From: Escherichia coli | GTDB lineage: Bacteria; Pseudomonadota; Gammaproteobacteria; Enterobacterales; Enterobacteriaceae | Length of the DNA: 64,000 nt | NCBI RefSeq assembly: GCF_044647545.1 | Contig: NZ_CP172818.1 | Reading direction: 5' to 3' (one strand) | In this document: positions 1 to 30,867 of the stretch, piece by piece | Position numbering within the stretch: the first letter of the stretch is position 1 | How the letters are laid out: each line of letters opens with the position of its first letter | Notes under the pieces: generated by a model | Told to the model about the DNA's origin: nothing | Databases searched by the model: none | The model's input: only the letters and a program-made list of their open reading frames with translations | Position numbers and translations under genes: made by a program

Positions 1-35
1 AACAACATTAAGGGTAATCCTTTAATAAATGTCAT
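1..35 (-). CDS. ybgP: Fimbrial periplasmic chaperone, 5' end only (gene continues left of the window)
   Basis: ATG at 35-33 on minus strand reads MTFIKGLPLML; lies 14 bp downstream of the ybgQ stop with an AGGA-like RBS; chaperone-usher operon context. Confidence 0.6.
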   Translation of the reverse strand, partial: MTFIKGLPLML

Positions 36-49
36 TCTCTTTTCCTTAA

Positions 50-2497
50 TTAATGACAAGGTAAAATCAGGCGTTTGGTCGTGTCTTCCAGACGTTCTGG
101 CAGATGAATAATGCAGCTTTGCTCACCCCAGACCACGGTAAACAGTTGATTTTCAGCGACACCGCTTAACCAGGCATGTCCTTCCTCGCCAACCATACCC
201 ACGCTAATGCCGCTGTCATCCTGGCGGATATCCGCACCGAGGGGAGGGAACTGACCGCTGGCGTTGCGTATGATGACGTTAACGTCTTTACCGGAACGGG
301 AAGCCAGTGATTTGTAACCTATCGCGCCTTCAATCCATGTTTCCTTGATGACGTTTTCTGCAACTGTTACGCCGTCGGGTAAGTCATTCATGTTCACCGC
401 CACGGTGGAAGGCTGGTAACTGGAAATCAACGGCACCACCGCAATGCCAAAATGGTTGGTGTAGTCGAGATTGCCCTGAACCGGAATATCTGCCACGCCA
501 TCGGTGCTGACCATCAGGCGTGGTTCATTGGTGGAGCTGCGGCGATGAAATGCTGCACCATATTGGGTTGCGGTGAAAGAACCGCTCCAGCTGCTGCTGA
601 CGGAACTGTAATCACTGGCGGCATAGGTACCAGAAATATCCCACTCACCCGCTGAACTCAGGTGCTGATAGTTACCGCTCACCTGGGCTCCATTGTCCGG
701 ACGATCGGATTGCAGTCCGGCAGACATGCCCCAGCTATTACGTTCATCCAGCGTATCGTTCCACGACATGCGGTGTATGGTGCTGTGGCTACTGTTTTGC
801 ATGTCATAGCCAACCCGACCACCGTTACCGAAGGGGAGCGAAATCGACAGATAAATCTGGTTGTCGCGATCTTTATCTTCGTAGTGGGTCGTATTGAATG
901 ACGTCGAAATCGAGATATCTCTCCAGTCACCAATATCAACATTAAAACCTGCTGTGATGTTGGCGGTCGTGGAGGCGTCTGCATTCCACCAGGTTTGATG
1001 TAGCAGGTTGGCGTAAAGATTGAGGTTTAGTGGGGTAATCGGTTGGCCCACGGATAAGCTGATCGTCTGTTTTTCGTCCTGCGCATCGCTGTCGTTGTAT
1101 TTGTGATCCAGATAGTTGGCGTAGCTGTGAAAATGACGATCTGAGAAGCGATAAGCGGCGAGCGAAATCGTGCTGTTGGTGGCATCCACTTGTTTGCTGT
1201 AATTAAAACGGTAGCTTAAGCCCCGCTCGTCCTGCTGAGTATCAAAATGGCTACTGGCCCAGGTGACATCAAAGGACAGTGCGCCAAGCCACAGCATATT
1301 TTGCCCGATACCCATTGCGGCAGAATGGTAGTCATCATCAGAAATCAGCAGGCCGCCGTACAGCGAGGTGTTTGAGAGCATCCCCCAGGAAACTTCATTG
1401 CTAAAAAAGGTTTCATTTTCAGTTTGATGTGACATGGAAGGCCGTGGCTGACCCGCGGCCAATTTATAGCGAACCTGTCCCTGGCGAGTCAGGAAGGGCG
1501 TCGATGCTGCCGAAACCTGGAAATTGTTCACCCGACCATCTTCTTCCGTCACTTTGACATCCAGCGTGCCCTGAACAGACTGATTGAGGTCATCAATAAT
1601 AAACGGGCCTGGCGGGACTTTTTTCTGGTAAATGACGCGGCCTGATTGACTGATCGTCACCGTGGCATTGGTCTGTGCAATACCGCTAATTTGTGGGGCG
1701 TAGCCACGCAGCTCCCACGGTAACATTCGATCGTCACTCGCCAGTGCCGCGCCGGTATAAGAAAAACCATCGAAAATATTGGAACTGAAATCGGTTTCGC
1801 CGAGGGTTAACTTAGAGCCTAATTGCGGTAATGGACGAAAAAGATAGGTGCGCGATATTCCGCCTGACTGGTCATGGTTATCTTCGCTATCGGTCTTATT
1901 AAGCTGGTAATCACTGCGTAAGCGCCATGCCCCGGCGTTAATTCCGGCGGTACCGTAGGCATTCAGGTTAGTGCTGCTGCTGCCGTCCTGTGGGCGGTAG
2001 CTGCTGGCAAACAAGTTGTAATCCATCAGGACACCGGCAACACCTTCTTTCCATGTAGAGGGGGGAGCCCAGTTTTCTGAGTGCCACGCCAGCCAGGCTT
2101 GCGGAATACTAATATTCAGTTGCTGATTGGCTTGATCGAAATTGAAGAGCATTTCAGGTCGGGAACTGAAATCAATACACCGATCTATCTGTGGCAAGGA
2201 CTGACGGATATCTGGTTTTAAACCAAATTTATCGACCAGTGAATCATTGATGCATGGAATGGTTTTGTCACCCTTTTTTTGCCAGTTAATTTTTTGCCCA
2301 TTACTGATTTTGTTGTTATTCACCGCAACGCTAACAAAATATTCACCGGGAGCAATGACTCCTTTTTCCTTTAATAATGAAATATCAATGCGGTCGCGCA
2401 TTGATTTATCGAGAACATTCAGATTGAATTCGACCGCCATTGCGCAAGGCATCGCCATGACCAGGCAGGATACAAAAGAGAGTCGATAAATATTCAC
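50..2497 (-). CDS. ybgQ: Outer-membrane fimbrial usher protein (815 aa from GTG; an in-frame ATG at 2506 is an alternative start)
   Basis: ORF track 50..2548; product recognised as PapC/FimD-type usher; ORF track N-terminal extension trimmed. Confidence 0.85.
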   Translation of the reverse strand: MNIYRLSFVSCLVMAMPCAMAVEFNLNVLDKSMRDRIDISLLKEKGVIAPGEYFVSVAVNNNKISNGQKINWQKKGDKTIPCINDSLVDKFGLKPDIRQSLPQIDRCIDFSSRPEMLFNFDQANQQLNISIPQAWLAWHSENWAPPSTWKEGVAGVLMDYNLFASSYRPQDGSSSTNLNAYGTAGINAGAWRLRSDYQLNKTDSEDNHDQSGGISRTYLFRPLPQLGSKLTLGETDFSSNIFDGFSYTGAALASDDRMLPWELRGYAPQISGIAQTNATVTISQSGRVIYQKKVPPGPFIIDDLNQSVQGTLDVKVTEEDGRVNNFQVSAASTPFLTRQGQVRYKLAAGQPRPSMSHQTENETFFSNEVSWGMLSNTSLYGGLLISDDDYHSAAMGIGQNMLWLGALSFDVTWASSHFDTQQDERGLSYRFNYSKQVDATNSTISLAAYRFSDRHFHSYANYLDHKYNDSDAQDEKQTISLSVGQPITPLNLNLYANLLHQTWWNADASTTANITAGFNVDIGDWRDISISTSFNTTHYEDKDRDNQIYLSISLPFGNGGRVGYDMQNSSHSTIHRMSWNDTLDERNSWGMSAGLQSDRPDNGAQVSGNYQHLSSAGEWDISGTYAASDYSSVSSSWSGSFTATQYGAAFHRRSSTNEPRLMVSTDGVADIPVQGNLDYTNHFGIAVVPLISSYQPSTVAVNMNDLPDGVTVAENVIKETWIEGAIGYKSLASRSGKDVNVIIRNASGQFPPLGADIRQDDSGISVGMVGEEGHAWLSGVAENQLFTVVWGEQSCIIHLPERLEDTTKRLILPCH

Positions 2498-2556
2498 GGT
2501 GTCCATACCTGATAAATATTTTATGAAAGGCGGCGATGATGCCGCCAAAATAATAC

Positions 2557-3123
2557 TTATTTATAATCCAGCACGTAGGTTGCGTTAGCGGTTACTTCAC
2601 CTGCCGTGACATCGACTGCATTATCAATTTGTTCCATCCAGGCGAAAAAGTTCAGCGTCTGTTCTGATGAGCTTGCATCCAGGTCAAGATCTGGCGCGGC
2701 TGAACCTAATACGATGTTACCGTCATTTTTGTCCATCAGTCGTACACCGACCCCAGTTGCTTCGCCTGCACTGGTGTTGCTCAACAAAGGCGTAGCACCA
2801 GTTGTCTTAGCCGTGCTATCGAAGGTTACGCCAACTTTGGATACCGGCATTCCGCTACCGTTGTCAGAAGCAGGCAGATCACAGTTGATCAAGCGAATGT
2901 CGACGGCCACTTTATTGCTATGATGCTCCCGGTTTATATGGGTTGTCGTGACTTGTCCAAGATCTATGTTTTTATCAATATCTTCTGGATGAATTTCACA
3001 AGGTGCTTCAATAACCTCCCCCTTAAAGTGAATTTCGCCAGAACCTTCATCAGCAGCATAAACAGGTGCAGTGAACAGCAGAGATACGGCCAGTGCGGCC
3101 AATGTTTTTTGTCCTTTAAACAT
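2557..3123 (-). CDS. ybgD: Fimbrial-like subunit protein, 188 aa, signal peptide
   Basis: ORF track 2557..3123; N-terminal signal peptide MFKGQKTLAALAVSLLFTAPVYA; first gene of chaperone-usher operon. Confidence 0.85.
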   Translation of the reverse strand: MFKGQKTLAALAVSLLFTAPVYAADEGSGEIHFKGEVIEAPCEIHPEDIDKNIDLGQVTTTHINREHHSNKVAVDIRLINCDLPASDNGSGMPVSKVGVTFDSTAKTTGATPLLSNTSAGEATGVGVRLMDKNDGNIVLGSAAPDLDLDASSSEQTLNFFAWMEQIDNAVDVTAGEVTANATYVLDYK

Positions 3124-3505
3124 AACAGAGTCCTTTAAGGATATAGAATAGGGGTATAGCTACGCCAGAATATCGTATTTGATTATTGCTAGTTTTTAGT
3201 TTTGCTTAAAAATATTGTTAGTTTTATTAAATGCAAAACTAAATTATTGGTATCATGAATTTGTTGTATGATGAATAAAATATAGGGGGGTATAGATAGA
3301 CGTCATTTTCATAGGGTTATAAATGCGACTACCATGAAGTTTTTAATTGAAAGTATTGGGTTGCTGATAATTTGAGCTGTTCTATTCTTTTTAAATATCT
3401 ATATAGGTCTGTTAATGGATTTAATTTTTACAATTTTTTATGTTCAGCCATATAAAAAGAACCCGCTCTATTAAAGGCGGGTCCGGAAAGTAAACGGCTT
3501 AGCAA

Positions 3506-4795
3506 TCAATCATTAACGCTTGATATCGCTTTTAAAGTCGCGTTTTTCATACCTGTGTAAAGCTGACGCGGACGGGCAATCTTCATACCGTCACTGTGCA
3601 TTTCGCTCCAGTGGGCGATCCAGCCAACGGTACGCGCCATCGCGAAGATCACGGTGAACATAGAAGACGGAATACCCATCGCTTTCAGGATGATACCAGA
3701 GTAGAAATCGACGTTCGGGTAGAGTTTCTTCTCGATAAAGTACGGGTCGTTCAGCGCGATGTTTTCCAGCTCCATAGCCACTTCCAGCAGGTCATCTTTG
3801 GTACCCAGCTCTTTCAGCACTTCATGGCAGGTTTCACGCATTACGGTGGCGCGCGGGTCGTAATTTTTGTACACGCGGTGCCCGAAGCCCATCAGGCGGA
3901 AAGAGTCATTTTTGTCTTTCGCACGACGAACAAATTCCGGAATGTGTTTAACGGAGCTGATTTCTTCCAGCATTTTCAGCGCCGCTTCGTTAGCACCACC
4001 GTGCGCAGGTCCCCACAGTGAAGCAATACCTGCTGCGATACAGGCAAACGGGTTCGCCCCCGAAGAGCCAGCGGTACGCACGGTGGAGGTAGAGGCGTTC
4101 TGTTCATGGTCAGCGTGCAGGATCAGAATACGGTCCATAGCACGTTCCAGAATCGGATTAACTTCATACGGTTCGCACGGCGTGGAGAACATCATATTCA
4201 GGAAGTTACCGGCATAGGAGAGATCGTTGCGCGGGTAAACGAATGGCTGACCAATGGAATACTTGTAACACATCGCGGCCATGGTCGGCATTTTCGACAG
4301 CAGGCGGAACGCGGCAATTTCACGATGACGAGGATTGTTAACATCCAGCGAGTCGTGATAGAACGCCGCCAGCGCGCCGGTAATACCACACATGACTGCC
4401 ATTGGATGCGAGTCGCGACGGAAAGCATGGAACAGACGGGTAATCTGCTCGTGGATCATGGTATGACGGGTCACCGTAGTTTTAAATTCGTCATACTGTT
4501 CCTGAGTTGGTTTTTCACCATTCAGCAGGATGTAACAAACTTCCAGGTAGTTAGAATCGGTCGCCAGCTGATCGATCGGGAAACCGCGGTGCAGCAAAAT
4601 ACCTTCATCACCATCAATAAAAGTAATTTTAGATTCGCAGGATGCGGTTGAAGTGAAGCCTGGGTCAAAGGTGAACACACCTTTTGAACCGAGAGTACGG
4701 ATATCAATAACATCTTGACCCAGCGTGCCTTTCAGCACATCCAGTTCAACAGCTGTGTCCCCGTTGAGGGTGAGTTTTGCTTTTGTATCAGCCAT
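3506..4795 (-). CDS. gltA: Citrate synthase, with a 1-nt deletion frameshifting the C-terminus (429 aa here vs canonical 427 aa)
   Basis: ORF track protein matches GltA through ...RPRQLYTG, then reads [14 protein letters not shown]; canonical [16 protein letters not shown] is present in the adjacent frame. Confidence 0.93.
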
Positions 4796-5503
4796 TTAAG
4801 GTCTCCTTAGCGCCTTATTGCGTAAGACTGCCGGAACTTAAATTTGCCTTCGCACATCAACCTGGCTTTACCCGTTTGTTATTTGGCTCGCCGCTCTGTG
4901 AAAGAGGGGAAAACCTGGGTACAGAGCTCTGGGCGCTTGCAGGTAAAGGATCCATTGATGACGAATAAATGGCGAATCAAGTACTTAGCAATCCGAATTA
5001 TTAAACTTGTCTACCACTAATAACTGTCCCGAATGAATTGGTCAATACTTCCACACTGTTACATAAGTTAATCTTAGGTGAAATACCGACTTCATAACTT
5101 TTACGCATTATATGCTTTTCCTGGTAATGTTTGTAACAACTTTGTTGAATGATTGTCAAATTAGATGATTAAAAATTAAATAAATGTTGTTATCGTGACC
5201 TGGATCACTGTTCAGGATAAAACCCGACAAACTATATGTAGGTTAATTGTAATGATTTTGTGAACGGCCTATACTGCCGCCAGGTCTCCGGAACACCCTG
5301 CAATCCCGAGCCACCCAGCGTTGTAACGTGTCGTTTTCGCATCTGGAAGCAGTGTTTTGCATGACGCGCAGTTATAGAAAGGACGCTGTCTGACCCGCAA
5401 GCAGACCGGAGGAAGGAAATCCCGACGTCTCCTGGTAACAGAAAGTTAACCTCTGTGCCCGTAGTCCCCAGGGAATAATAAGAACAGCATGTGGGCGTTA
5501 TTC

Positions 5504-5893
5504 ATGATAAGAAATGTGAAAAAACAAAGACCTGTTAATCTGGACCTACAGACCATCCGGTTCCCCGTCACGGCGATAGCGTCCATTCTCCATCGCGTTT
5601 CCGGTGTGATCACCTTTGTTGCAGTGGGCATCCTGCTGTGGCTTCTGGGTACCAGCCTCTCTTCCCCTGAAGGTTTCGAGCAAGCTTCTGCGATTATGGG
5701 CAGCTTCTTCGTCAAATTTATCATGTGGGGCATCCTTACCGCTCTGGCGTATCACGTCGTCGTAGGTATTCGCCACATGATGATGGATTTTGGCTATCTG
5801 GAAGAAACATTCGAAGCGGGTAAACGCTCCGCCAAAATCTCCTTTGTTATTACTGTCGTGCTTTCACTTCTCGCAGGAGTCCTCGTATGGTAA
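5504..5893 (+). CDS. sdhC: Succinate dehydrogenase cytochrome b556 large membrane subunit
   Basis: ORF track 5489..5893; canonical start [15 protein letters not shown] at 5504; 129 aa. Confidence 0.95.
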
Positions 5894-6234
5894 GCAACGC
5901 CTCCGCATTAGGACGCAATGGCGTACATGATTTCATCCTCGTTCGCGCTACCGCTATCGTCCTGACGCTGTACATCATTTATATGGTCGGTTTTTTCGCT
6001 ACCAGTGGCGAGCTGACATATGAAGTCTGGATTGGTTTCTTCGCCTCTGCGTTCACCAAAGTGTTCACCCTGCTGGCGCTGTTTTCTATCTTGATTCATG
6101 CCTGGATCGGCATGTGGCAGGTGTTGACCGACTACGTTAAACCGCTGGCCTTGCGCCTGATGCTGCAACTGGTGATTGTCGTTGCTCTGGTGGTTTACGT
6201 GATTTATGGATTCGTTGTGGTGTGGGGTGTGTGA
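5887..6234 (+). CDS. sdhD: Succinate dehydrogenase hydrophobic membrane anchor subunit
   Basis: ORF track 5887..6234; 115 aa; overlaps sdhC end and sdhA start (TGATG). Confidence 0.95.
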
Positions 6235-8000
6235 TGAAATTGCCAGTCAGAGAATTTGATGCAGTTGTGATTGGTGCCGGTGGCGCAGGTATGCGCGCGG
6301 CGCTGCAAATTTCCCAGAGCGGTCAGACCTGTGCGCTGCTCTCTAAAGTCTTCCCGACCCGTTCCCATACCGTGTCTGCGCAAGGCGGCATTACCGTTGC
6401 GCTGGGTAATACCCATGAAGATAACTGGGAATGGCATATGTACGACACCGTAAAAGGTTCGGACTATATCGGTGACCAGGACGCAATTGAATATATGTGT
6501 AAAACCGGGCCGGAAGCGATTCTGGAACTCGAACACATGGGCCTGCCGTTCTCGCGCCTTGATGATGGTCGTATCTATCAACGTCCGTTTGGCGGCCAGT
6601 CGAAAAACTTCGGCGGCGAGCAGGCGGCACGCACTGCGGCGGCAGCTGACCGTACCGGTCACGCACTGTTGCACACCCTTTATCAGCAGAACCTGAAAAA
6701 CCATACAACCATTTTCTCCGAGTGGTATGCGCTGGATCTGGTGAAGAACCAGGATGGCGCAGTGGTCGGTTGTACCGCATTGTGCATCGAAACTGGTGAA
6801 GTGGTTTATTTCAAAGCCCGCGCTACCGTGCTGGCGACTGGCGGGGCAGGGCGTATTTATCAGTCCACCACTAACGCCCACATTAACACTGGCGACGGCG
6901 TCGGCATGGCTATCCGCGCAGGCGTACCGGTGCAGGATATGGAAATGTGGCAGTTCCACCCGACCGGCATTGCAGGTGCGGGCGTACTGGTCACCGAAGG
7001 TTGCCGTGGTGAAGGCGGTTATCTGCTGAACAAACATGGCGAACGCTTTATGGAGCGTTATGCGCCGAACGCCAAAGACCTGGCGGGCCGTGACGTGGTG
7101 GCGCGTTCCATCATGATCGAAATCCGTGAAGGTCGCGGCTGTGATGGTCCGTGGGGGCCACACGCGAAACTGAAACTCGATCACCTGGGTAAAGAAGTTC
7201 TCGAATCCCGTCTGCCGGGTATTCTGGAACTCTCCCGTACCTTCGCTCACGTTGATCCGGTGAAAGAGCCGATTCCGGTTATCCCAACCTGTCACTACAT
7301 GATGGGCGGTATTCCGACCAAAGTGACCGGTCAGGCGCTGACGGTGAACGAGAAAGGCGAAGATGTGGTTGTTCCGGGGCTGTTTGCCGTTGGTGAAATC
7401 GCTTGTGTATCGGTACACGGCGCTAACCGTCTGGGCGGCAACTCGCTGCTGGACCTGGTGGTCTTTGGTCGCGCAGCGGGTCTGCATCTGCAAGAGTCTA
7501 TCGCCGAGCAGGGCGCACTGCGCGATGCCAGCGAGTCTGATGTTGAAGCGTCTCTGGATCGCCTGAACCGCTGGAACAATAACCGTAACGGTGAAGATCC
7601 GGTGGCGATCCGTAAAGCACTGCAAGAATGTATGCAGCATAACTTCTCGGTCTTCCGTGAAGGTGATGCGATGGCGAAAGGGCTTGAGCAGTTGAAAGTT
7701 ATCCGCGAGCGTCTGAAAAATGCCCGTCTGGATGACACTTCCAGCGAGTTCAACACCCAGCGCGTTGAGTGCCTGGAACTGGATAACCTGATGGAAACGG
7801 CGTATGCAACGGCTGTTTCTGCCAACTTCCGTACCGAAAGCCGTGGCGCGCATAGCCGCTTCGACTTCCCGGATCGCGATGATGAAAACTGGCTGTGCCA
7901 CTCCCTGTATCTGCCAGAGTCGGAATCCATGACGCGCCGAAGCGTCAACATGGAACCGAAACTGCGCCCGGCATTCCCGCCGAAGATTCGTACTTACTAA
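6234..8000 (+). CDS. sdhA: Succinate dehydrogenase flavoprotein subunit
   Basis: ORF track 6222..8000; start [19 protein letters not shown] with FAD-binding motif; 588 aa. Confidence 0.96.
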
Positions 8001-8015
8001 TGCGGAGACAGGAAA

Positions 8016-8732
8016 ATGAGACTCGAGTTTTCAATTTATCGCTATAACCCGGATGTTGATGATGCTCCGCGTATGCAGGATTACACCCTGGAAGCGGAAG
8101 AAGGTCGCGACATGATGCTGCTGGATGCGCTTATCCAGCTGAAAGAGAAAGATCCCAGCCTGTCGTTCCGTCGCTCCTGCCGTGAAGGTGTGTGCGGTTC
8201 CGACGGTCTGAACATGAACGGTAAGAATGGTCTGGCCTGTATTACCCCGATTTCGGCACTCAACCAGCCGGGCAAGAAGATTGTGATTCGCCCGCTGCCA
8301 GGTTTACCGGTGATCCGCGATTTGGTGGTAGACATGGGACAATTCTATGCGCAATATGAGAAAATTAAGCCTTACCTGTTGAATAATGGACAAAATCCGC
8401 CAGCTCGCGAGCATTTACAGATGCCAGAGCAGCGCGAAAAACTCGACGGGTTGTATGAATGTATTCTCTGCGCATGTTGTTCAACCTCTTGTCCGTCTTT
8501 CTGGTGGAATCCCGATAAGTTTATCGGCCCGGCAGGCTTGTTAGCGGCATATCGTTTCCTGATCGATAGCCGTGATACCGAGACTGACAGCCGCCTCGAC
8601 GGTTTGAGCGATGCATTCAGTGTATTCCGCTGTCACAGCATCATGAACTGCGTCAGTGTATGTCCGAAGGGGCTGAACCCGACGCGCGCCATCGGCCATA
8701 TCAAGTCGATGTTGTTGCAACGTAATGCGTAA
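8016..8732 (+). CDS. sdhB: Succinate dehydrogenase iron-sulfur subunit
   Basis: ORF track; 238 aa; Cys clusters CxxxxCxxC and CxxCxxCxxxCP. Confidence 0.96.
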   Translation: MRLEFSIYRYNPDVDDAPRMQDYTLEAEEGRDMMLLDALIQLKEKDPSLSFRRSCREGVCGSDGLNMNGKNGLACITPISALNQPGKKIVIRPLPGLPVIRDLVVDMGQFYAQYEKIKPYLLNNGQNPPAREHLQMPEQREKLDGLYECILCACCSTSCPSFWWNPDKFIGPAGLLAAYRFLIDSRDTETDSRLDGLSDAFSVFRCHSIMNCVSVCPKGLNPTRAIGHIKSMLLQRNA

Positions 8733-8912
8733 TTAATGTCGGGAATTCAGGAAATCTTTAAAAACTGCCCCTGACACTAAGACAGTTTTTAAAGGTTCCT
8801 TCGCGAGCCACTACGTAGACAAGAGCTCGCAAGTGAACCCCGGCACGCACATCACTGTGCGTGGTAGTATCCACGGCGAAGTAAGCATAAAAAAGATGCT
8901 TAAGGGATCACG

Positions 8913-15170: not shown

Positions 15171-15174
15171 ATGC

Positions 15175-15897
15175 TTATCGCGATGATTTTCGCTGCGCTA
15201 TCAGGGTAAATTTATAGTCATCGGTATTAAAAGCGTTGCGGCTATATTCAAACACCCGACCATCAACTAAATATCCACGCGATACTTTTTCAAGAATCGG
15301 CTTTGTCTGGCTGATATTAAGCAGACGGCTCATCTCTTCGGTTGGCATCAGAGGAATGATTTCCTGTTCGCTACGATCGATAACCATTTTCTTCACTTCT
15401 TCGATAAAGTGATATTTCGAATTTTCCATGACCTGCCAGGTGAGATCCGGGAACAACGCAAGCGGCATCCAGGTTTCTTCCAGCGCCATTGGCTTTTGCT
15501 TGCGATAGCGCACGCGCTTCACATGCCACACACGATCCTGCGGGGTGATTTGTAGCTGTTGCTGAAGAAAATCGTCAGCCGGAATCACTTCGAATATCAG
15601 AACTTCACTGTGTGTATCGACGTGACGGTCCGACAGTTTTTCATCAAAACTGGTTAACTGAAAAATATCGTAATTGACCCGCTCTTCTTTGACGTAAGTC
15701 CCGCTGCCCTGAATGCTTTCGAGGATCTGCTGCTCGACTAGCTGGCGCAAAGCCTGACGCACCGTAACCCGGCTGACGCCAAACTCTGTTTGTAGCGCTG
15801 ATTCAGTGGGTAACGCATCGCCAGGTTTAAGCTCGCCACGCGCAATTTGTTCACGAATGCGATCGGCAATCTGCCGGTATAAGGGCTTGTGTCCCAT
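15175..15897 (-). CDS. mngR: GntR-family transcriptional repressor of the mannosyl-D-glycerate operon
   Basis: ORF track; 240 aa; N-terminal GntR HTH, UTRA C-domain; divergent from mngA. Confidence 0.92.
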   Translation of the reverse strand: MGHKPLYRQIADRIREQIARGELKPGDALPTESALQTEFGVSRVTVRQALRQLVEQQILESIQGSGTYVKEERVNYDIFQLTSFDEKLSDRHVDTHSEVLIFEVIPADDFLQQQLQITPQDRVWHVKRVRYRKQKPMALEETWMPLALFPDLTWQVMENSKYHFIEEVKKMVIDRSEQEIIPLMPTEEMSRLLNISQTKPILEKVSRGYLVDGRVFEYSRNAFNTDDYKFTLIAQRKSSR

Positions 15898-16005
15898 TTT
15901 TAGTATCTCATTAATACGAATTTAACCATTATGCCCGATAAATTCATCCTGTAAATAATACAAATACAATACAAATAATTTCAATCAAGTGAAATTGATC
16001 ACATA

Positions 16006-17982
16006 ATGGTATTGTTTTATCGGGCACACTGGCGCGACTATAAAAACGATCAAGTGAGGATCATGATGAATCTGACGACTCTGACCCACCGCGATGCGTT
16101 GTGTCTGAATGCGCGCTTTACCAGCCGTGAAGAGGCCATCCACGCGTTGACTCAACGTCTTGCTGCTCTGGGGAAAATTTCCAGTACTGAGCAATTTCTG
16201 GAAGAAGTGTATCGCCGTGAAAGCCTTGGCCCGACCGCCTTAGGTGAAGGGTTGGCTGTGCCGCATGGCAAAACTGCTGCGGTAAAAGAAGCGGCGTTTG
16301 CGGTCGCCACACTCAGCGAGCCGCTTCAGTGGGAAGGCGTTGATGGCCCGGAAGCAGTTGATTTAGTGGTGCTGCTGGCGATTCCCCCCAATGAAGCGGG
16401 TACTACGCATATGCAACTGCTGACAGCGCTGACCACGCGCCTTGCGGATGATGAGATTCGGGCGCGTATACAGTCGGCGACGACGCCTGATGAGTTGCTC
16501 TCGGCGCTGGATGACAAGGGAGGCACGCAACCTTCTGCCTCTTTTTCCAACGCGCCAACTATCGTCTGCGTAACGGCCTGTCCGGCGGGTATTGCTCACA
16601 CCTATATGGCTGCGGAATATCTGGAAAAAGCCGGACGCAAACTCGGCGTAAATGTTTACGTTGAAAAACAAGGCGCTAACGGCATTGAAGGGCGTTTAAC
16701 GGCGGATCAACTCAATAGTGCAACCGCCTGTATTTTTGCGGCTGAAGTCGCCATCAAGGAGAGTGAGCGTTTTAATGGCATTCCCGCGCTTTCAGTGCCT
16801 GTTGCCGAGCCGATTCGCCATGCAGAAGCGTTGATCCAACAAGCGCTTACCCTCAAGCGTAGCGATGAGACGCGTACCGTACAGCAAGATACGCAACCGG
16901 TGAAAAGTGTCAAAACGGAGCTGAAACAGGCACTGTTGAGCGGAATCTCTTTTGCCGTACCGTTGATTGTCGCGGGGGGCACGGTGCTGGCGGTCGCGGT
17001 ATTACTGTCGCAAATCTTCGGGCTACAAGATCTGTTTAATGAAGAAAACTCCTGGCTGTGGATGTACCGCAAGCTGGGCGGCGGGCTGCTCGGAATTTTG
17101 ATGGTACCGGTGCTCGCGGCCTATACCGCCTATTCTCTGGCAGATAAACCGGCGTTAGCGCCAGGCTTTGCGGCTGGACTTGCCGCCAACATGATCGGCT
17201 CCGGGTTTCTCGGCGCGGTCGTTGGCGGATTGATAGCCGGTTACTTGATGCGCTGGGTGAAAAATCACTTGCGTCTTAGCAGTAAATTCAATGGATTCCT
17301 GACTTTTTATCTCTACCCGGTGCTCGGTACGTTGGGAGCGGGCAGTCTGATGCTGTTTGTGGTGGGGGAACCTGTCGCCTGGATCAATAACTCGCTTACC
17401 GCCTGGCTGAACGGTCTGTCAGGAAGTAACGCGCTGTTGCTGGGTGCCATTCTCGGTTTTATGTGTTCCTTTGACCTTGGAGGGCCAGTGAATAAAGCCG
17501 CTTATGCATTCTGCCTGGGCGCAATGGCGAACGGCGTTTACGGCCCGTATGCCATTTTCGCCTCCGTCAAAATGGTTTCGGCATTTACCGTAACCGCTTC
17601 CACGATGCTCGCACCGCGCCTGTTTAAAGAGTTTGAAATTGAGACCGGGAAATCCACCTGGCTGTTAGGGCTGGCAGGTATTACCGAAGGGGCGATCCCG
17701 ATGGCGATTGAAGATCCGCTGCGGGTTATTGGTTCGTTTGTGCTGGGCTCTATGGTAACGGGCGCTATTGTCGGTGCGATGAATATCGGCCTTTCGACAC
17801 CCGGTGCCGGCATTTTCTCGCTCTTTTTACTTCATGATAATGGCGCGGGCGGTGTTATGGCGGCAATTGGCTGGTTTGGCGCGGCATTGGTGGGGGCTGC
17901 AATCTCGACTGCAATTCTCCTGATGTGGCGGCGTCACGCGGTTAAGCATGGCAACTATCTGACTGATGGCGTAATGCCATAA
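16006..17982 (+). CDS. mngA: PTS 2-O-alpha-mannosyl-D-glycerate-specific EIIABC component
   Basis: ORF track; 658 aa; EIIA-EIIB-EIIC fructose-family PTS architecture. Confidence 0.92.
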
Positions 17983-17999
17983 ACAAAAAGGAAACGACG

Positions 18000-20633
18000 A
18001 TGAAAGCAGTATCTCGCGTTCACATCACCCCGCATATGCACTGGGATCGAGAGTGGTATTTCACCACCGAAGAGTCACGTATTCTGCTGGTCAATAATAT
18101 GGAAGAGATCCTGTGCCGACTGGAACAGGACAACGAATACAAATATTACGTACTCGACGGGCAAACGGCGATCCTCGAAGATTATTTCGCGGTGAAACCG
18201 GAAAACAAAGACCGTGTGAAGAAACAGGTAGAAGCCGGCAAGTTGATTATCGGCCCCTGGTATACCCAGACCGATACCACGATTGTTTCTGCGGAATCCA
18301 TCGTCCGTAATCTGATGTACGGAATGCGTGACTGCCTCGCGTTTGGCGAGCCGATGAAAATAGGTTATTTACCAGATTCCTTTGGCATGTCCGGGCAACT
18401 GCCGCATATCTACAATGGATTTGGCATTACCCGCACCATGTTCTGGCGCGGATGTTCGGAGCGCCACGGTACTGATAAAACCGAGTTTTTGTGGCAAAGC
18501 AGTGACGGTAGCGAAGTGACGGCGCAGGTGCTGCCGCTGGGCTACGCCATCGGTAAGTACTTACCTGCCGACGAAAACGGATTACGTAAACGCCTCGACA
18601 GTTATTTTGACGTGCTGGAAAAAGCGTCTGTAACCAAAGAGATTTTGCTGCCGAATGGGCATGACCAGATGCCATTGCAGCAAAATATCTTCGAAGTGAT
18701 GGATAAGCTACGTGAGATCTACCCTCAACGTAAGTTTGTGATGAGCCGCTTTGAAGAGGTATTTGAGAAGATCGAAGCGCAGCGAGATAATCTGGCAACC
18801 CTGAAAGGGGAATTTATTGATGGCAAATATATGCGCGTGCATCGCACCATCGGTTCTACGCGTATGGATATCAAAATTGCCCACGCGCGTATTGAAAATA
18901 AGATTGTTAATCTGCTGGAACCGCTGGCAACACTGGCCTGGACGTTGGGTTTTGAATACCACCACGGCTTGCTGGAGAAAATGTGGAAAGAGATCTTAAA
19001 AAATCATGCCCACGACAGTATCGGCTGCTGCTGTAGTGACAAAGTTCATCGCGAAATCGTCGCCCGCTTCGAACTGGCTGAAGACATGGCGGATAATCTG
19101 ATTCGTTTCTACATGCGCAAAATTGCCGACAACATGCCGCAGAGCGACGCCGACAAACTCGTCCTGTTTAACCTGATGCCCTGGCCGCGTGAAGAAGTTA
19201 TCAACACCACTGTGCGGCTGCGCGCCAGCCAGTTTAATTTGCGGGACGATCGCGGTCAGCCTGTACCGTATTTTATTCGCCATGCCCGTGAGATCGATCC
19301 AGGCCTAATCGATCGGCAAATAGTTCATTACGGTAATTACGATCCCTTTATGGAGTTTGATATACAGATCAACCAGATTGTCCCTTCTATGGGCTATCGC
19401 ACGCTTTATATCGAAGCGAATCAGCCTGGCAACGTAATTGCGGCAAAAAGTGACGCTGAAGGGATACTGGAAAATGCTTTCTGGCAAATTGCGCTCAATG
19501 AGGATGGTTCTCTGCAACTGGTAGATAAAGACAGCGGTGTGCGCTATGACCGGGTATTGCAAATTGAAGAAAGCTCTGATGATGGTGATGAATATGACTA
19601 TTCACCCGCAAAAGAAGAGTGGGTAATTACCGCAGCGAACGCGAAACCGCAATGCGATATTATTCATGAAGCCTGGCAGAGCAGGGCTGTTATCCGCTAT
19701 GACATGGCAGTGCCGCTCAATTTGTCAGAACGCAGCGCCCGGCAATCCACTGGCAGAGTAGGGGTGGTGTTGGTTGTCACTCTTAGTCATAACAGCAGGC
19801 GTATTGATGTGGATATCAATCTTGATAACCAGGCTGACGATCATCGCCTTCGTGTCCTGGTCCCTACACCTTTTAACACCGACAGTGTTCTGGCAGATAC
19901 GCAGTTTGGTTCGCTAACGCGCCCCGTGAACGACAGTGCAATGAACAACTGGCAGCAAGAAGGCTGGAAAGAAGCGCCGGTTCCGGTATGGAATATGCTC
20001 AACTATGTTGCCTTACAGGAAGGGCGTAACGGCATGGCTGTCTTTAGCGAAGGGTTACGTGAATTTGAAGTCATCGGTGAAGAGAAGAAAACCTTTGCCA
20101 TTACGTTGCTGCGTGGCGTGGGCTTACTGGGCAAAGAAGATCTGCTTTTAAGGCCTGGGCGGCCTTCGGGAATTAAAATGCCAGTCCCGGACTCACAACT
20201 ACGTGGTCTGCTTTCTTGTCGCCTAAGTTTATTGAGTTATACCGGTACGCCAACCGCCGCTGGTGTAGCTCAGCAGGCGCGAGCATGGCTGACTCCAGTA
20301 CAGTGTTACAACAAAATCCCATGGGATGTGATGAAGCTCAACAAAGCCGGATTCAACGTGCCGGAAAGTTATAGTTTGTTGAAAATGCCCCCAGTGGGAT
20401 GCCTGATAAGCGCACTTAAGAAAGCTGAAGACCGACAAGAAGTGATTTTACGGCTGTTTAATCCGGCTGAATCAGCAACCTGTGATGCGACTGTTGCTTT
20501 CAGTCGCGAGGTGATTTCTTGCTCAGAAACGATGATGGATGAACACATTACCACCGAGGAAAATCAAGGTTCAAATCTATCGGGGCCTTTTTTACCCGGC
20601 CAGTCACGGACGTTCAGTTACCGGCTTGCCTGA
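18000..20633 (+). CDS. mngB: Mannosylglycerate hydrolase (GH38 alpha-mannosidase)
   Basis: ORF track; 877 aa; downstream of mngA. Confidence 0.92.
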
Positions 20634-20689
20634 ATAGCAATCAAACCGAAGCCACATATGCGCGGCCAGATTGTTGACAAAGGGCGCTT

Positions 20690-20800
20690 TGTTCATGCCG
20701 GATACGGCATGAACGCTTTATTCGGTCTACAAAAGCAGGCAAATTCAATATATTGCAGAGATGATGTAGACACTGGCAAGCGTAGCGCATCAGGTAATTT
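20690..20800. repeat. Degenerate REP-like palindromic units downstream of mngB
   Basis: GCCGGATACGGCATGAACGCTTTATTCGGTCTAC and AAGCGTAGCGCATCAGG resemble REP consensus with several mismatches. Confidence 0.4.
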
Positions 20801-20885
20801 TGCGTTTATCTTCACTCTCAAGCCACGTATATGTGGCTTTATTTTTAACAAAATAATAACCCTGGGTGAGTTAATTATAATATAA

Positions 20886-21479
20886 TTATAAGTTAACTAA
20901 ATGTTAATATTGGCGGGGTGGATTTATGCCTTTATTAGTAATCCTGAAACTCTGCGTCGTATTAGCCAGTGACCAAAAAAAGAATTAAGGTCAACCGTGC
21001 TGTTTTTGCTTCGTCTCTTTTTATCTTTAATTGCCAACCGAAACTAATTTCAGCCTTATAACTCACACATTTTAAACATAAATGTCACTAAAGTTACCTT
21101 ATTGAAACATAATTAACATATTTGGTTGGTTTTGATATAAATCAATTTTTAATTCTTGAAAAAAATCTGCAAAACACGATAAATTGTCGTAGATCAAATT
21201 GGTGAGATCGTGACAATTTCGCTATAAATTGATCACTGTCGAAAAATGCAAATTTGCTCAATAAAAACCTGTTTATTGTAAGGATTTTGCGGCGTAATAT
21301 AATTACGGGATCAATTTGGTTTATTCATTAACATATTTGTAACTTTTTTATCATTGTCTTTTCCTCTTTTGATGAAATGGCAACGATAGAGGCGAGCAAA
21401 TAATTTTGTATTGGGGCATGCGTGTGACCCTTTCTAACGGGGTTCACTCTCGGAGTCTTCATGCGATGAGCAAGGAGTC
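20886..21479 (+). promoter_or_regulatory. cydAB multi-promoter control region (AT-rich, FNR/ArcA-regulated)
   Basis: About 600 bp AT-rich non-coding DNA upstream of cydA; contains the FNR-consensus sites listed separately. Confidence 0.6.
21132..21145. promoter_or_regulatory. FNR box (perfect TTGAT-N4-ATCAA) upstream of cydA
   Basis: TTGATATAAATCAA read directly; a second near-consensus TTGTCGTAGATCAA at about 21184-21197. Confidence 0.6.
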
Positions 21480-21482
21480 ATG

Positions 21483-23051
21483 ATGTTAGATATAGTCGAA
21501 CTGTCGCGCTTACAGTTTGCCTTGACCGCGATGTACCACTTCCTTTTTGTGCCACTGACGCTCGGTATGGCGTTCCTGCTGGCCATTATGGAAACGGTCT
21601 ACGTCCTTTCCGGCAAACAGATTTATAAAGATATGACCAAGTTCTGGGGCAAGTTGTTTGGTATCAACTTCGCTCTGGGTGTGGCTACCGGTCTGACCAT
21701 GGAGTTCCAGTTCGGGACTAACTGGTCTTACTATTCCCACTATGTAGGGGATATCTTCGGTGCGCCGCTGGCAATCGAAGGTCTAATGGCCTTCTTCCTC
21801 GAATCCACCTTTGTAGGTCTGTTCTTCTTCGGTTGGGATCGTCTGGGTAAAGTTCAGCATATGTGTGTCACCTGGCTGGTGGCGCTCGGTTCAAACCTGT
21901 CCGCACTGTGGATTCTGGTTGCGAACGGCTGGATGCAAAACCCAATCGCGTCCGATTTCAACTTTGAAACTATGCGTATGGAGATGGTGAGCTTCTCCGA
22001 GCTGGTGCTTAACCCGGTTGCTCAGGTGAAATTCGTTCACACTGTAGCGTCTGGTTATGTGACTGGCGCGATGTTCATCCTCGGTATCAGCGCATGGTAT
22101 ATGCTGAAAGGTCGTGACTTCGCCTTCGCTAAACGCTCCTTTGCTATCGCTGCCAGCTTCGGTATGGCTGCCGTTCTGTCTGTTATTGTTCTGGGTGATG
22201 AATCTGGTTACGAAATGGGCGACGTGCAGAAAACCAAACTGGCTGCTATTGAAGCCGAGTGGGAAACGCAACCTGCGCCTGCTGCCTTTACTCTGTTCGG
22301 CATTCCTGATCAGGAAGAGGAGACGAACAAATTTGCGATCCAGATCCCTTACGCGCTGGGCATCATTGCAACGCGTTCCGTGGATACTCCAGTTATCGGC
22401 CTGAAAGAACTGATGGTGCAGCATGAAGAACGCATTCGTAACGGGATGAAGGCGTACTCTCTGCTCGAGCAACTGCGTTCTGGTTCTACCGACCAGGCGG
22501 TTCGTGACCAGTTCAATAGCATGAAGAAAGACCTCGGTTACGGTCTGCTGCTGAAACGCTATACGCCAAACGTGGCTGATGCGACTGAAGCGCAGATTCA
22601 ACAGGCAACCAAAGACTCCATTCCGCGTGTAGCGCCGCTGTACTTCGCGTTCCGTATTATGGTGGCGTGTGGCTTCCTGCTGCTGGCAATCATCGCGCTC
22701 TCTTTCTGGAGTGTCATCCGCAACCGCATTGGCGAGAAAAAATGGCTGCTGCGCGCCGCGCTGTACGGTATTCCGCTGCCGTGGATTGCTGTAGAAGCGG
22801 GCTGGTTTGTGGCTGAATATGGCCGCCAACCGTGGGCTATCGGTGAAGTGCTGCCGACAGCTGTGGCGAACTCGTCACTGACCGCAGGCGATCTCATCTT
22901 CTCAATGGTGCTGATTTGCGGCCTGTATACCCTGTTCCTGGTGGCAGAATTGTTCTTAATGTTCAAGTTTGCACGCCTCGGCCCAAGCAGCCTGAAAACC
23001 GGTCGCTATCACTTTGAGCAGTCTTCCACGACTACTCAGCCGGCACGCTAA
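21483..23051 (+). CDS. cydA: Cytochrome bd-I ubiquinol oxidase subunit I
   Basis: ORF track 21480..23051; canonical start [12 protein letters not shown]; 522 aa. Confidence 0.96.
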
Positions 23052-23066
23052 GACAGGAGTCGTCAA

Positions 23067-24206
23067 ATGATCGATTATGAAGTATTGCGTTTTATCTGGT
23101 GGCTGCTGGTTGGCGTTCTGCTGATTGGTTTTGCAGTCACTGACGGTTTCGACATGGGGGTGGGCATGCTCACCCGTTTCCTCGGTCGTAACGACACCGA
23201 GCGTCGAATTATGATTAACTCCATTGCACCACACTGGGACGGTAACCAGGTTTGGCTGATCACCGCGGGCGGCGCACTCTTTGCTGCCTGGCCGATGGTC
23301 TATGCCGCTGCGTTCTCCGGCTTCTATGTGGCGATGATCCTCGTGCTGGCGTCTTTGTTCTTCCGTCCGGTCGGTTTTGACTACCGCTCCAAGATTGAAG
23401 AAACCCGCTGGCGTAACATGTGGGACTGGGGCATCTTCATTGGTAGCTTCGTTCCGCCGCTGGTGATTGGTGTAGCGTTCGGTAACCTGTTGCAGGGCGT
23501 ACCGTTCAACGTTGATGAATATCTGCGTCTGTACTACACCGGTAACTTTTTCCAGCTGCTTAACCCGTTCGGCCTGCTGGCAGGCGTGGTGAGCGTAGGG
23601 ATGATCATTACTCAGGGCGCAACCTATCTGCAAATGCGTACCGTGGGTGAACTGCACTTGCGTACCCGTGCAACGGCTCAGGTGGCGGCACTGGTGACAC
23701 TGGTCTGCTTCGCACTGGCTGGCGTATGGGTGATGTACGGTATCGATGGTTATGTTGTGAAATCAACAATGGACCATTACGCAGCCTCTAACCCGCTGAA
23801 TAAAGAAGTGGTTCGTGAAGCTGGCGCATGGCTGGTTAACTTCAACAACACGCCAATTCTGTGGGCTATTCCGGCACTGGGTGTGGTTCTGCCGCTGCTG
23901 ACCATCCTGACTGCACGTATGGATAAAGCCGCGTGGGCGTTTGTGTTCTCCTCCCTGACGCTGGCCTGCATCATCCTGACTGCCGGTATCGCAATGTTCC
24001 CGTTTGTGATGCCGTCCAGCACCATGATGAACGCAAGTCTGACAATGTGGGATGCAACTTCCAGCCAGCTGACGCTTAACGTCATGACCTGGGTTGCGGT
24101 GGTTCTGGTACCGATCATTCTGCTCTACACCGCCTGGTGCTACTGGAAAATGTTCGGTCGTATCACCAAAGAAGATATTGAACGTAACACCCACTCTCTG
24201 TACTAA
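23067..24206 (+). CDS. cydB: Cytochrome bd-I ubiquinol oxidase subunit II
   Basis: ORF track; 379 aa. Confidence 0.96.
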   Translation: MIDYEVLRFIWWLLVGVLLIGFAVTDGFDMGVGMLTRFLGRNDTERRIMINSIAPHWDGNQVWLITAGGALFAAWPMVYAAAFSGFYVAMILVLASLFFRPVGFDYRSKIEETRWRNMWDWGIFIGSFVPPLVIGVAFGNLLQGVPFNVDEYLRLYYTGNFFQLLNPFGLLAGVVSVGMIITQGATYLQMRTVGELHLRTRATAQVAALVTLVCFALAGVWVMYGIDGYVVKSTMDHYAASNPLNKEVVREAGAWLVNFNNTPILWAIPALGVVLPLLTILTARMDKAAWAFVFSSLTLACIILTAGIAMFPFVMPSSTMMNASLTMWDATSSQLTLNVMTWVAVVLVPIILLYTAWCYWKMFGRITKEDIERNTHSLY

Positions 24207-24220
24207 GTAAGGAGCTAAAA

Positions 24221-24334
24221 ATGTGGTATTTCGCATGGATTCTGGGAACGCTTCTTGCCTGTTCGTTTGGGGTAATCACCGCGCTGGCGCTTGAGCACGT
24301 CGAATCAGGCAAAGCCGGTCAAGAAGACATCTGA
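24221..24334 (+). CDS. cydX: Cytochrome bd-I oxidase small accessory subunit (37 aa)
   Basis: ATG 14 bp after cydB stop behind AGGAG RBS; reads MWYFAWILGTLLACSFGVITALALEHVESGKAGQEDI; stop overlaps ybgE start; below ORF-track size cutoff. Confidence 0.9.
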   Translation: MWYFAWILGTLLACSFGVITALALEHVESGKAGQEDI

Positions 24335-24627
24335 TGAGTAAGATTATCGCAACCTTGTATGCGGTAATGGACAAGCGCCCCCTGCGGGCGCTTTCCTTCG
24401 TGATGGCGCTTCTGTTAGCAGGATGTATGTTTTGGGACCCATCACGTTTCGCCGCGAAGACCAGTGAACTGGAAATCTGGCATGGTTTATTGCTGATGTG
24501 GGCCGTCTGTGCTGGTGTGATTCACGGCGTGGGCTTTCGTCCGCAGAAGGTTCTCTGGCAAGGGATTTTTTGCCCTTTGCTTGCCGATATTGTTCTCATT
24601 GTCGGGCTGATTTTCTTCTTCTTTTAA
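24334..24627 (+). CDS. ybgE: Small inner-membrane protein of the cyd operon
   Basis: ORF track; 97 aa; hydrophobic. Confidence 0.88.
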   Translation: MSKIIATLYAVMDKRPLRALSFVMALLLAGCMFWDPSRFAAKTSELEIWHGLLLMWAVCAGVIHGVGFRPQKVLWQGIFCPLLADIVLIVGLIFFFF

Positions 24628-24643
24628 ATCAGAATTCTCTTTA

Positions 24644-24678
24644 AAAATTTATGGGCCGCTTCAGGCCCATAAATTTTT
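24644..24678. terminator. Bidirectional rho-independent terminator after ybgE
   Basis: 13-bp perfect stem AAATTTATGGGCC/GGCCCATAAATTT flanked by A-run and T-run. Confidence 0.7.
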
Positions 24679-24776
24679 ACGCTCCCTTAACTTGCCCTCA
24701 TTCCCAAACCTCAATCGCGCGCGTATAGTAGCAGCGTTTAAAAGCTCTAACTTTTGTTGCATTACCGGGATGTAAA

Positions 24777-25870
<1,094 letters not shown>

Positions 25871-25873
25871 GCC

Positions 25874-26302
25874 ATGGCCAGAGCGCGTGGACGAGGTCGT
25901 CGCGATCTCAAGTCCGAAATCAACATTGTACCGTTGCTGGACGTACTGCTGGTGCTGTTGCTGATCTTTATGGCGACAGCGCCCATCATTACCCAGAGCG
26001 TGGAGGTCGATCTGCCAGACGCTACTGAATCACAGGCGGTGAGCAGTAACGATAATCCGCCAGTGATTGTTGAAGTGTCTGGTATTGGTCAGTACACCGT
26101 GGTGGTTGAGAAAGATCGCCTGGAGCGTTTACCACCAGAGCAGGTGGTGGCGGAAGTGTCCAGCCGTTTCAAGGCCAACCCGAAAACGGTCTTTCTGATC
26201 GGTGGCGCAAAAGATGTGCCTTACGATGAAATAATTAAAGCACTGAACTTGTTACATAGTGCGGGTGTGAAATCGGTTGGTTTAATGACGCAGCCTATCT
26301 AA
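25874..26302 (+). CDS. tolR: Tol-Pal system protein TolR
   Basis: ORF track; 142 aa; ExbD/MotB-like. Confidence 0.95.
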   Translation: MARARGRGRRDLKSEINIVPLLDVLLVLLLIFMATAPIITQSVEVDLPDATESQAVSSNDNPPVIVEVSGIGQYTVVVEKDRLERLPPEQVVAEVSSRFKANPKTVFLIGGAKDVPYDEIIKALNLLHSAGVKSVGLMTQPI

Positions 26303-26366
26303 ACATCTGCGTTTCCCTTGCTTGAAAGAGAGCGGGTAACAGGCGAACAGTTTTTGGAAACCGAGA

Positions 26367-27632
26367 GTGTCAAAGGCAACCGAACAAAACGACAAGCTCA
26401 AACGGGCGATAATTATTTCAGCAGTGCTGCATGTCATCTTATTTGCGGCGCTGATCTGGAGTTCGTTCGATGAGAATATAGAAGCTTCAGCCGGAGGCGG
26501 CGGTGGTTCGTCCATCGACGCTGTCATGGTTGATTCAGGTGCGGTAGTTGAGCAGTACAAACGCATGCAAAGCCAGGAATCAAGCGCGAAGCGTTCTGAT
26601 GAGCAGCGCAAGATGAAGGAACAGCAGGCTGCTGAAGAACTGCGTGAGAAACAAGCGGCTGAACAGGAACGCCTGAAGCAACTTGAGAAAGAGCGGTTAG
26701 CGGCTCAGGAACAGAAAAAGCAGGCTGAAGAAGCCGCAAAACAGGCCGAGTTAAAGCAGAAGCAAGCGGAAGAAGCGGCAGCGAAAGCGGCGGCAGATGC
26801 TAAAGCGAAGGCTGAAGCGGATGCAAAAGCTGCGGAAGAAGCAGCGAAGAAAGCGGCTGCAGACGCGAAGAAAAAAGCAGAAGCAGAAGCCGCCAAAGCC
26901 GCAGCCGAAGCGCAGAAAAAAGCCGAGGCAGCCGCGGCGGCACTGAAGAAGAAAGCGGAAGCGGCAGAAGCAGCTGCAGCTGAAGCAAGAAAGAAAGCGG
27001 CAACTGAAGCTGCTGAAAAAGCCAAAGCAGAAGCTGAGAAGAAAGCGGCTGCTGAAAAGGCTGCAGCTGATAAGAAAGCGGCAGCAGAGAAAGCGGCAGC
27101 CGACAAAAAAGCAGCAGAAAAAGCGGCTGCTGAAAAGGCAGCAGCTGATAAGAAAGCAGCGGCAGAAAAAGCCGCCGCAGACAAAAAAGCGGCAGCGGCA
27201 AAAGCAGCAGCTGAAAAAGCCGCTGCAGCAAAAGCTGCCGCAGAGGCAGATGATATTTTCGGTGAGCTAAGCTCTGGTAAGAATGCACCGAAAACGGGGG
27301 GAGGGGCGAAAGGGAACAATGCTTCGCCAGCCGGGAGTGGTAATACTAAAAACAATGGCGCATCAGGGGCCGATATCAATAACTATGCCGGGCAGATTAA
27401 ATCTGCTATCGAAAGTAAGTTCTATGACGCATCGTCCTATGCAGGCAAAACCTGTACGCTGCGCATAAAACTGGCACCCGATGGTATGTTACTGGATATC
27501 AAACCTGAAGGTGGCGATCCCGCACTTTGTCAGGCTGCGTTGGCAGCAGCTAAACTTGCGAAGATCCCGAAACCACCAAGCCAGGCAGTATATGAAGTGT
27601 TCAAAAACGCGCCATTGGACTTCAAACCGTAA
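26367..27632 (+). CDS. tolA: Tol-Pal system protein TolA
   Basis: ORF track; 421 aa; GTG start; long Ala/Lys/Glu-rich helical domain II. Confidence 0.95.
   Translation: MSKATEQNDKLKRAIIISAVLHVILFAALIWSSFDENIEASAGGGGGSSIDAVMVDSGAVVEQYKRMQSQESSAKRSDEQRKMKEQQAAEELREKQAAEQERLKQLEKERLAAQEQKKQAEEAAKQAELKQKQAEEAAAKAAADAKAKAEADAKAAEEAAKKAAADAKKKAEAEAAKAAAEAQKKAEAAAAALKKKAEAAEAAAAEARKKAATEAAEKAKAEAEKKAAAEKAAADKKAAAEKAAADKKAAEKAAAEKAAADKKAAAEKAAADKKAAAAKAAAEKAAAAKAAAEADDIFGELSSGKNAPKTGGGAKGNNASPAGSGNTKNNGASGADINNYAGQIKSAIESKFYDASSYAGKTCTLRIKLAPDGMLLDIKPEGGDPALCQAALAAAKLAKIPKPPSQAVYEVFKNAPLDFKP
26650..27260 (+). repeat. Low-complexity tandem coding repeats within tolA domain II
   Basis: Repeated AAEKAAADKKAA-type units (GCGGCAGC/AAAGC motifs) visible in protein and DNA. 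Confidence 0.8.
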
Positions 27633-27764
27633 TCGCGATGTTGACTGTTCCGACGGTCAACATCAGGCACCGGTTGCCACGGGGTTCTGGTAGTTTTGTG
27701 TATTTTAGTTTGTTAACATTCTGCTAAATTATCGTGGGCCATCGGTCCAGATAAGGGAGATATG

Positions 27765-29057: not shown

Positions 29058-29067
29058 TAATAATTAA

Positions 29068-29613
<546 letters not shown>

Positions 29614-29622
29614 GAGAATTGC

Positions 29623-30414: not shown

Positions 30415-30422
30415 TGCATAAC

Positions 30423-30456
30423 ACACGACCAGAAGTCGCATTATTTCTGGTCGTGT
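30423..30456 (+). terminator. Rho-independent terminator after cpoB
   Basis: Hairpin CACGACCAGAA...TTCTGGTCGTG immediately after the cpoB stop. Confidence 0.6.
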
Positions 30457-30865: not shown

Positions 30866-30867
30866 CC

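Follow-up and report, generated by a model that had tools for sequence, protein, structure and literature searches.

The citrate synthase of Escherichia coli, GltA, is a type II enzyme, hexameric and regulated by NADH (WP_000785834.1; PDB 1NXE/1NXG, 1OWB, 4G6B, 4JAD). Two natural and intact 3' ends of its gene are encountered in this species, one of K-12 type, located beside the ybg fimbrial operon or its remnants, and one encoding WP_000785832.1, located beside a TRAP-transporter/UxaA island. The second tail lies at positions 8715-8760 of the segment extracted from strain MS6198, whose gltA is intact (427 aa, WP_000785832.1), with the TRAP-transporter genes directly after it in place of ybgD; its 3' end reads CAG CTT TAC ACC GGC TAC GCG CAG CGT GAT TTT AAG TCG GAT ATT AAG AAG TAA. 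The same intact 427-aa protein is encoded beside TRAP permease genes in strains ECONIH1 and WP4-S18-ESBL-09, and MS6198 and ECONIH1 are strains that we take to be ST648, phylogroup F. K-12-type strains, as well as those carrying the intergenic variant referred to below as haplotype 2, encode intact WP_000785834.1, and both parental types considered here thus have an intact 427-aa gltA. On sequence grounds, it looks as if the TRAP island had come with its own gltA end, through a crossover in the highly conserved block coding for ARPRQL. Between the two natural tails, 18 of 46 nucleotides are changed and just 3 of 12 residues; this part of the protein is therefore under purifying selection, and a scrambled tail is not expected to persist and would probably be costly to the cell. 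A literature search on the citrate synthase C-terminus returned nothing directly relevant.

Here, we analysed a 64-kb stretch of E. coli DNA (the window, meaning the whole stretch), in which gltA carries a frameshift close to its 3' end. The features of this end are the following.

3506..4795, minus strand: gltA (citrate synthase) as recorded, an ORF of 429 aa with residues 1-415 canonical and the last 14 out of frame
between 3551 and 3552: position of the lost base, a T on the plus strand corresponding to the A of the Gly415 codon GGA; G/C in MS6198-type genomes
3513..3551, minus strand: intact K-12-type gltA tail and its TAA, displaced into the neighbouring frame
3557..3560: 3557 G and 3560 A, synonymous markers read as CTT TAC on the coding strand, shared with the MS6198-type tail and with none of the K-12-type genomes

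An earlier note on this DNA had proposed that one base was missing around 3549-3552. Alignment to K-12 MG1655, Z1323CEC0014 and SMS-3-5 places the absent base between 3551 and 3552 (ATA[T]CCTG on the plus strand, GG[A]TAT on the coding strand), and with an A restored at the gap the product is exactly K-12 GltA, 427 aa long; an alignment to K-12 gltA free of any indel had been named as the outcome that would overturn the claim, and the indel is present. The recorded GltA and K-12 GltA (WP_000785834.1) agree at every position up to residue 415, the first difference being residue 416. The conserved C-terminus does survive in the adjacent frame, as had been noticed, in the form of the 12-residue K-12-type tail (3513-3551, TAA included) followed by two stops. 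This ending, described as canonical, is so for K-12-type strains, WP_000785832.1 providing a second natural and intact tail. In the record, the last 12 residues are swapped for 14 out-of-frame ones, the end of the ORF comes 6 nt later, and no in-frame tail of the form Y-x-x-R-D-F... ends at residue 427. That the protein is a citrate synthase, catalytic core included, is established by phmmer matches to PDB 4G6B, 1OWB and 1NXE with E-values of ~1e-287. The ARPRQ arginine and the catalytic core are upstream of the frameshift and unchanged, and with a core intact to residue 415 the 429-aa GltA might still work as an enzyme.

The body of gltA (3561-4795) is 100% identical to that of SMS-3-5, its closest K-12-type gltA, and the two sequences then show three changes within 10 nt, namely the deletion plus 3557 G and 3560 A, two synonymous substitutions (CTG to CTT and TAT to TAC). 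Positions 3540-3565 of the window read CTTTACACAGGTATGAAAAAC as written. The "single-nucleotide deletion" initially reported is real insofar as a base is missing, and it shares its junction with two neighbouring substitutions. The coding strand reads CAG CTT TAC AC/A GG- TAT GAA AAA CGC, where the slash marks a change of haplotype, the window being of MS6198 type to 3555 and of K-12 type leftwards from 3554. As the last K-12-type marker is 3554 T and the first MS6198-type one 3557, the switch interval is 3555-3556. The deletion is only 3-6 nt from this switch and does not lie on the single continuous haplotype expected of a real allele. The lost base is a position with A in K-12 and C in MS6198, and in a BLAST comparison with 88 kb of MS6198 (NZ_CP015834.1, 766-854 kb) the homology stops at 3552-3555, at the deletion.

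The window as a whole was tiled by exact-match extension against K-12 and MS6198, which resolved it into alternating blocks.

1..3422: block identical to K-12 MG1655 (ybgQ, ybgD and the left portion of the spacer), a region absent from MS6198-type genomes
3423..3512: spacer between gltA and ybgD, containing the gltA terminator hairpin, haplotype 2, like E. coli C, HS-01 and SMS-3-5, and neither K-12 nor MS6198
3555..8736: block identical base for base to MS6198 (gltA body, sdhCDAB)
8745-12979 and 12984-15174: exact MS6198 blocks
15172..21110: block identical to K-12 (mngR, mngA, mngB), where MS6198 and SMS-3-5 have a hut/methylaspartate island instead; at either end, the switch is confined to 3-4 nt
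21107..64000: MS6198-type block, with exact runs 21107-31132 and 31133-64000, the exceptions being a tRNA deletion and the SNP at 53848

No mismatch to K-12 occurs across the ~9.3 kb of K-12 blocks and a single SNP to MS6198 across ~55 kb, while outside the K-12 blocks most 1-kb bins show 10-70 mismatches per kb to K-12. BLAST identity to the 88 kb of MS6198 is 99.995% over 21107-64000 and 99.8% over 3552-15177, and positions 36000-60000 are 100.0% identical to a set of strains including MS6198, ECONIH1 and DFL.5. The SNP at 53848 alters residue 265 of YbhJ (T265 variant), and the exact YbhJ is also present in many genomes, DFL.5 among them. Gene order from ybgD through gltA and sdhCDAB to sucABCD is as in the K-12-type context. 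The K-12-type blocks coincide exactly with the regions that MS6198 lacks, which are the ybg fimbrial operon (the TRAP island takes its place) and mngRAB (the hut/methylaspartate island takes its place). SMS-3-5 also lacks mngRAB and has only a partial fimbrial gene beside gltA.

The two switches around mngRAB are as sharp as the one in gltA. At the sucD/mngR border, MS6198-type markers run to 15171 and K-12-type ones begin at 15175; at the mngB/cydA border, K-12-type markers run to 21106 and MS6198-type ones resume at 21111. All switch intervals are of 2-4 nt and lie at the edge of alignable sequence, and this alternation of blocks is what a chimeric assembly would display. Homologous recombination needs tens of identical bases and normally leaves flanking markers of the incoming DNA; the 2-4 nt shared at the switches are therefore too little for it. 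The sucD-cydA interval is a hotspot of replacement, occupied by mngR-mngA-mngB in K-12-type strains, by a ~24-kb hut and methylaspartate (glutamate mutase) island in MS6198 and by a shorter version of that island in SMS-3-5; these islands were located at 6396-29551 of one comparison segment and at 8260-21236 of another.

The gltA frameshift had been described as the only one detectable in the window, and this holds for protein-coding genes. It does not extend to a tRNA-Lys gene that is also one base short, nor to two intergenic hairpins with deletions.

8737..8744: sdhB-sucA intergenic scar, with ~22 nt of an MS6198-type hairpin missing, in a version found in no complete E. coli genome
12980..12983: sucB-sucC intergenic hairpin scar, with four nt of the hairpin loop missing, in a version found in no complete E. 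coli genome
31074..31148, plus strand: tRNA-Lys of 75 nt instead of 76, inside a tRNA array, with one T of the T-loop missing after 31132

In both hairpins, what remains is a ragged subset of the MS6198 sequence that single deletions cannot explain, and at both sites K-12 has long REP clusters. A search with the concatenated hairpins found neither version in 5,426 complete E. coli genomes, the best match being the ordinary 100-nt sucB-sucC form (96.0%). The damaged tRNA-Lys is the fifth tRNA of a Lys/Val array whose spacer lengths differ between K-12 and MS6198; its T-loop reads GGTTCGAA-CC, whereas all other copies have 76 nt, as does its counterpart in MS6198. This deletion was compared with MS6198 only, the gltA junction and the hairpins with the 5,426 genomes. 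Within the aligned blocks, the differences from MS6198, the SNP at 53848 aside, are all deletions, and all of them fall at structural differences between K-12 and MS6198. All four private indels thus fall in zones of structural difference, which by a rough estimate make up ~1% of the window, and ~55 kb contain no private SNP. This placement, with no private SNP beside it, is not the pattern of a mutational process. Private indels at structural differences, in places where the parents are intact, are on the other hand what a chimeric assembly would leave.

A real allele could be expected to recur in independent genomes, and the same lesion was found in none of those searched. The gltA junction is present in 0 of 5,426 complete RefSeq E. 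coli genomes, a set that does not include the source record, with best matches of 96.9% for 3506-3600 and 98.3% for 3421-3720, and none of the three changes (the deletion, 3557 G and 3560 A) was seen in this context in any of these genomes. Exact searches for the hybrid gltA tail, both as recorded and with the base put back, gave no hit in 241 million metagenome records or in 100,044 species-representative genomes. A degenerate pattern of the tail retrieved 23 E. coli-type metagenome contigs, all reading CTG TAT ACA GGA TAT and in frame, and 24 species representatives of Enterobacterales, all in frame as well. The exact 429-aa product occurs once in the protein collection, on one NCBI contig of 4,499,902 bp and without a protein accession. 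This is a K-12-like size, the listed MS6198-type genomes being of 5.0-5.3 Mb.

Beside the mosaic observed here, with its exact switch points, its scars and the intact genes of both parents, the gltA frameshift is very probably a junction artefact of a reference-assisted or mixed-strain assembly, real in the record and no real mutation. We infer that the joining was done by software, be it a reference-guided consensus, polishing on a foreign backbone or the collapse of mixed strains, and not in a cell. The record would then combine two or more types of E. coli genome, one serving as a K-12-like backbone and another coming from an MS6198-like strain. MS6198-like sequence would have been carried exactly wherever it could be aligned to the backbone, and backbone sequence would have been kept where the MS6198-like genome has no counterpart, as for the ybg fimbrial operon and mngRAB. 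As the MS6198-type genome has its own gltA 3' end and the TRAP island, its similarity to the backbone would end within the last 15 codons of gltA, and the join from the MS6198-type sequence (CTT TAC AC) to that of the backbone type (A GG- TAT GAA AAA...) would have lost one base, producing a shift of the reading frame that is found in neither parent. If so, MS6198-type continuity from CTTTACAC to CGGCTACGCGCAG and the TRAP genes, or a second read population with CTGTATACAGGATATG, would be expected. A series of crossovers within ~21 kb, all of them at borders of heterology, is not credible as a cellular event, while alignment-driven software yields such a pattern. The earlier note had left the choice between a real allele and a base-calling or assembly error; error is indeed favoured, in the form of a seam scar in a mosaic record and not of a lone miscall.

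The identity of the backbone requires a qualification. The intergenic stretch 3423-3512 belongs to the widespread haplotype 2; a single A in a run of A is all that separates it from E. coli C and HS-01, and 2 SNPs separate it from SMS-3-5. Together with the K-12-type gltA tail, it forms a 132-nt stretch (3423-3554) between the K-12 and MS6198 blocks. No complete RefSeq genome joins K-12-identical ybgQD with haplotype 2 (best 99.4%), and no complete genome joins haplotype 2 with MS6198-type sdh genes (best 99.5%). A simple two-source model with K-12 MG1655 as the backbone does not explain 3423-3512. Since this stretch is neither K-12 nor MS6198 and no complete genome combines it with the adjacent blocks, either the backbone came from a K-12-like strain that is not yet sampled or a third source took part. 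The K-12-type alleles of ybgQD and mngRAB are frequent in natural isolates, and their presence is therefore no proof that K-12 itself was used; the idea that this mngRAB is specific to laboratory K-12 was ruled out, as many natural isolates are 100% identical to it. A natural junction near 3420 is known in strain 1919D62, and the seam near 3420 may be a natural feature of the backbone. The ybgD-gltA spacer is in itself hypervariable, with at least three unalignable types (K-12, E. coli C/HS-01 and 1919D62) and a deletion type (SMS-3-5) upstream of ~3420 (window 3124-3422), and two types, with compensating differences in the gltA terminator hairpin, downstream of it (window 3423-3512). Our reading of the gltA junction is unaffected by the gap at 3423-3512, because both candidate parents have intact genes.

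All alternatives to an assembly artefact, taken together, retain a small share of the probability. The best of them is that the junction is a real allele, in which the TRAP island of an MS6198-like ancestor was replaced by DNA of K-12 type or haplotype 2, and a microhomology (illegitimate) join in the diverged gltA tail, at the right-hand junction, lost one base. We consider it improbable, our overall rating being low and our detailed one somewhat lower. The MS6198-type markers at 3557 and 3560, followed by the K-12-type tail and the haplotype-2 spacer, are just the residue expected of such an imprecise replacement. The further consequence, a citrate synthase in this strain whose C-terminus ends in 14 foreign residues and is tolerated by the cell, is equally improbable, even if a core untouched to residue 415, ARPRQ arginine included, leaves room for a working enzyme; the purifying selection on the tail speaks against it. 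The replacement would also need the same type of 2-4-nt junction at both ends of mngRAB, along with independent and unique deletions in two hairpins and a tRNA and not one private SNP, and it has no counterpart in the 5,426 genomes or in the metagenome scan. If the junction were true, the conserved tail of a central TCA-cycle enzyme would be dispensable, and the locus would document homology-facilitated illegitimate recombination occurring naturally in E. coli, of which examples are rare.

Two further routes to this junction were set aside. The first, an in-silico excision, would have left the displaced K-12-type tail and intergenic region, attR-like, at the far end of the TRAP island in MS6198, and BLAST of 3380-3600 against the 88 kb of MS6198 returned only 49 nt inside gltA. 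There are 4,332 genomes matching 3400-3556 and 4,332 matching at least 80% of 3506-3600; these equal counts suggest that MS6198-type genomes carry no copy of haplotype 2 anywhere. Quasi-palindrome template switching, considered in view of the ancestral CTGTATACAG, a perfect 10-nt palindrome destroyed in the window, was dropped as both substitutions are exactly the MS6198-type states.

Still less probable is the framing of the earlier note, by which an otherwise correctly assembled natural genome contains a lone error of sequencing or base calling, or lost 1 nt recently by spontaneous deletion. One base does restore the frame perfectly, and the remainder of gltA is identical to known alleles; however, the site GGATAT contains no homopolymer, the deletion is one of three changes in 10 nt that mark a haplotype switch, and the mosaic of the whole window is found in no complete genome. 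Least probable of all is a genuine laboratory or natural hybrid of a K-12-like recipient and an MS6198-like donor, with a chromosome that is truly mosaic, scars included: its 4.5 Mb would fit a K-12-like recipient, and it is general knowledge that mosaic E. coli chromosomes can arise by conjugation or transduction between strains, but donor tracts would bring donor islands or leave flanking recipient markers, the recipient islands are here retained with donor sequence reaching the very last alignable base at either flank, and at least six crossovers within 21 kb would be needed, all at identities of 2-4 nt.

The assembly artefact being the preferred reading, and both parental strains having an intact citrate synthase, the frameshift itself carries little biological weight. 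Its significance is one of quality control, since calls of mutations, pseudogenes and gene content made from the source record become suspect, particularly near strain-specific islands. The record is unsuited as a strain reference, and other anomalies found in it should first be checked against its composite origin. More generally, frameshifts flagged from sequence alone admit a simple diagnostic, namely whether the lesion sits where one haplotype gives way to another and whether further private indels occur at places of structural difference.

Compared with the systems described at the outset, the window shares residues 1-415 with the E. coli type II citrate synthase and departs from it by the replacement of the last 12 residues with 14 out-of-frame ones. 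With the natural WP_000785832.1 allele of MS6198, ECONIH1 and WP4-S18-ESBL-09, it shares the gltA body and the CTT TAC markers; it differs in lacking the continuation ACC GGC TAC GCG... and the TRAP genes, jumping instead to the K-12-type tail minus one base. The window most resembles reference-guided or mixed-strain chimeric assemblies, in which the backbone is likewise kept only where the other type has no counterpart, the switches fall at the last alignable base, hairpins appear as partial sub-sequences and the differences specific to the record are indels only, with no SNPs. Its one departure from such assemblies is the haplotype-2 stretch at 3423-3512, which would call for a backbone other than MG1655 or for a third contributor.
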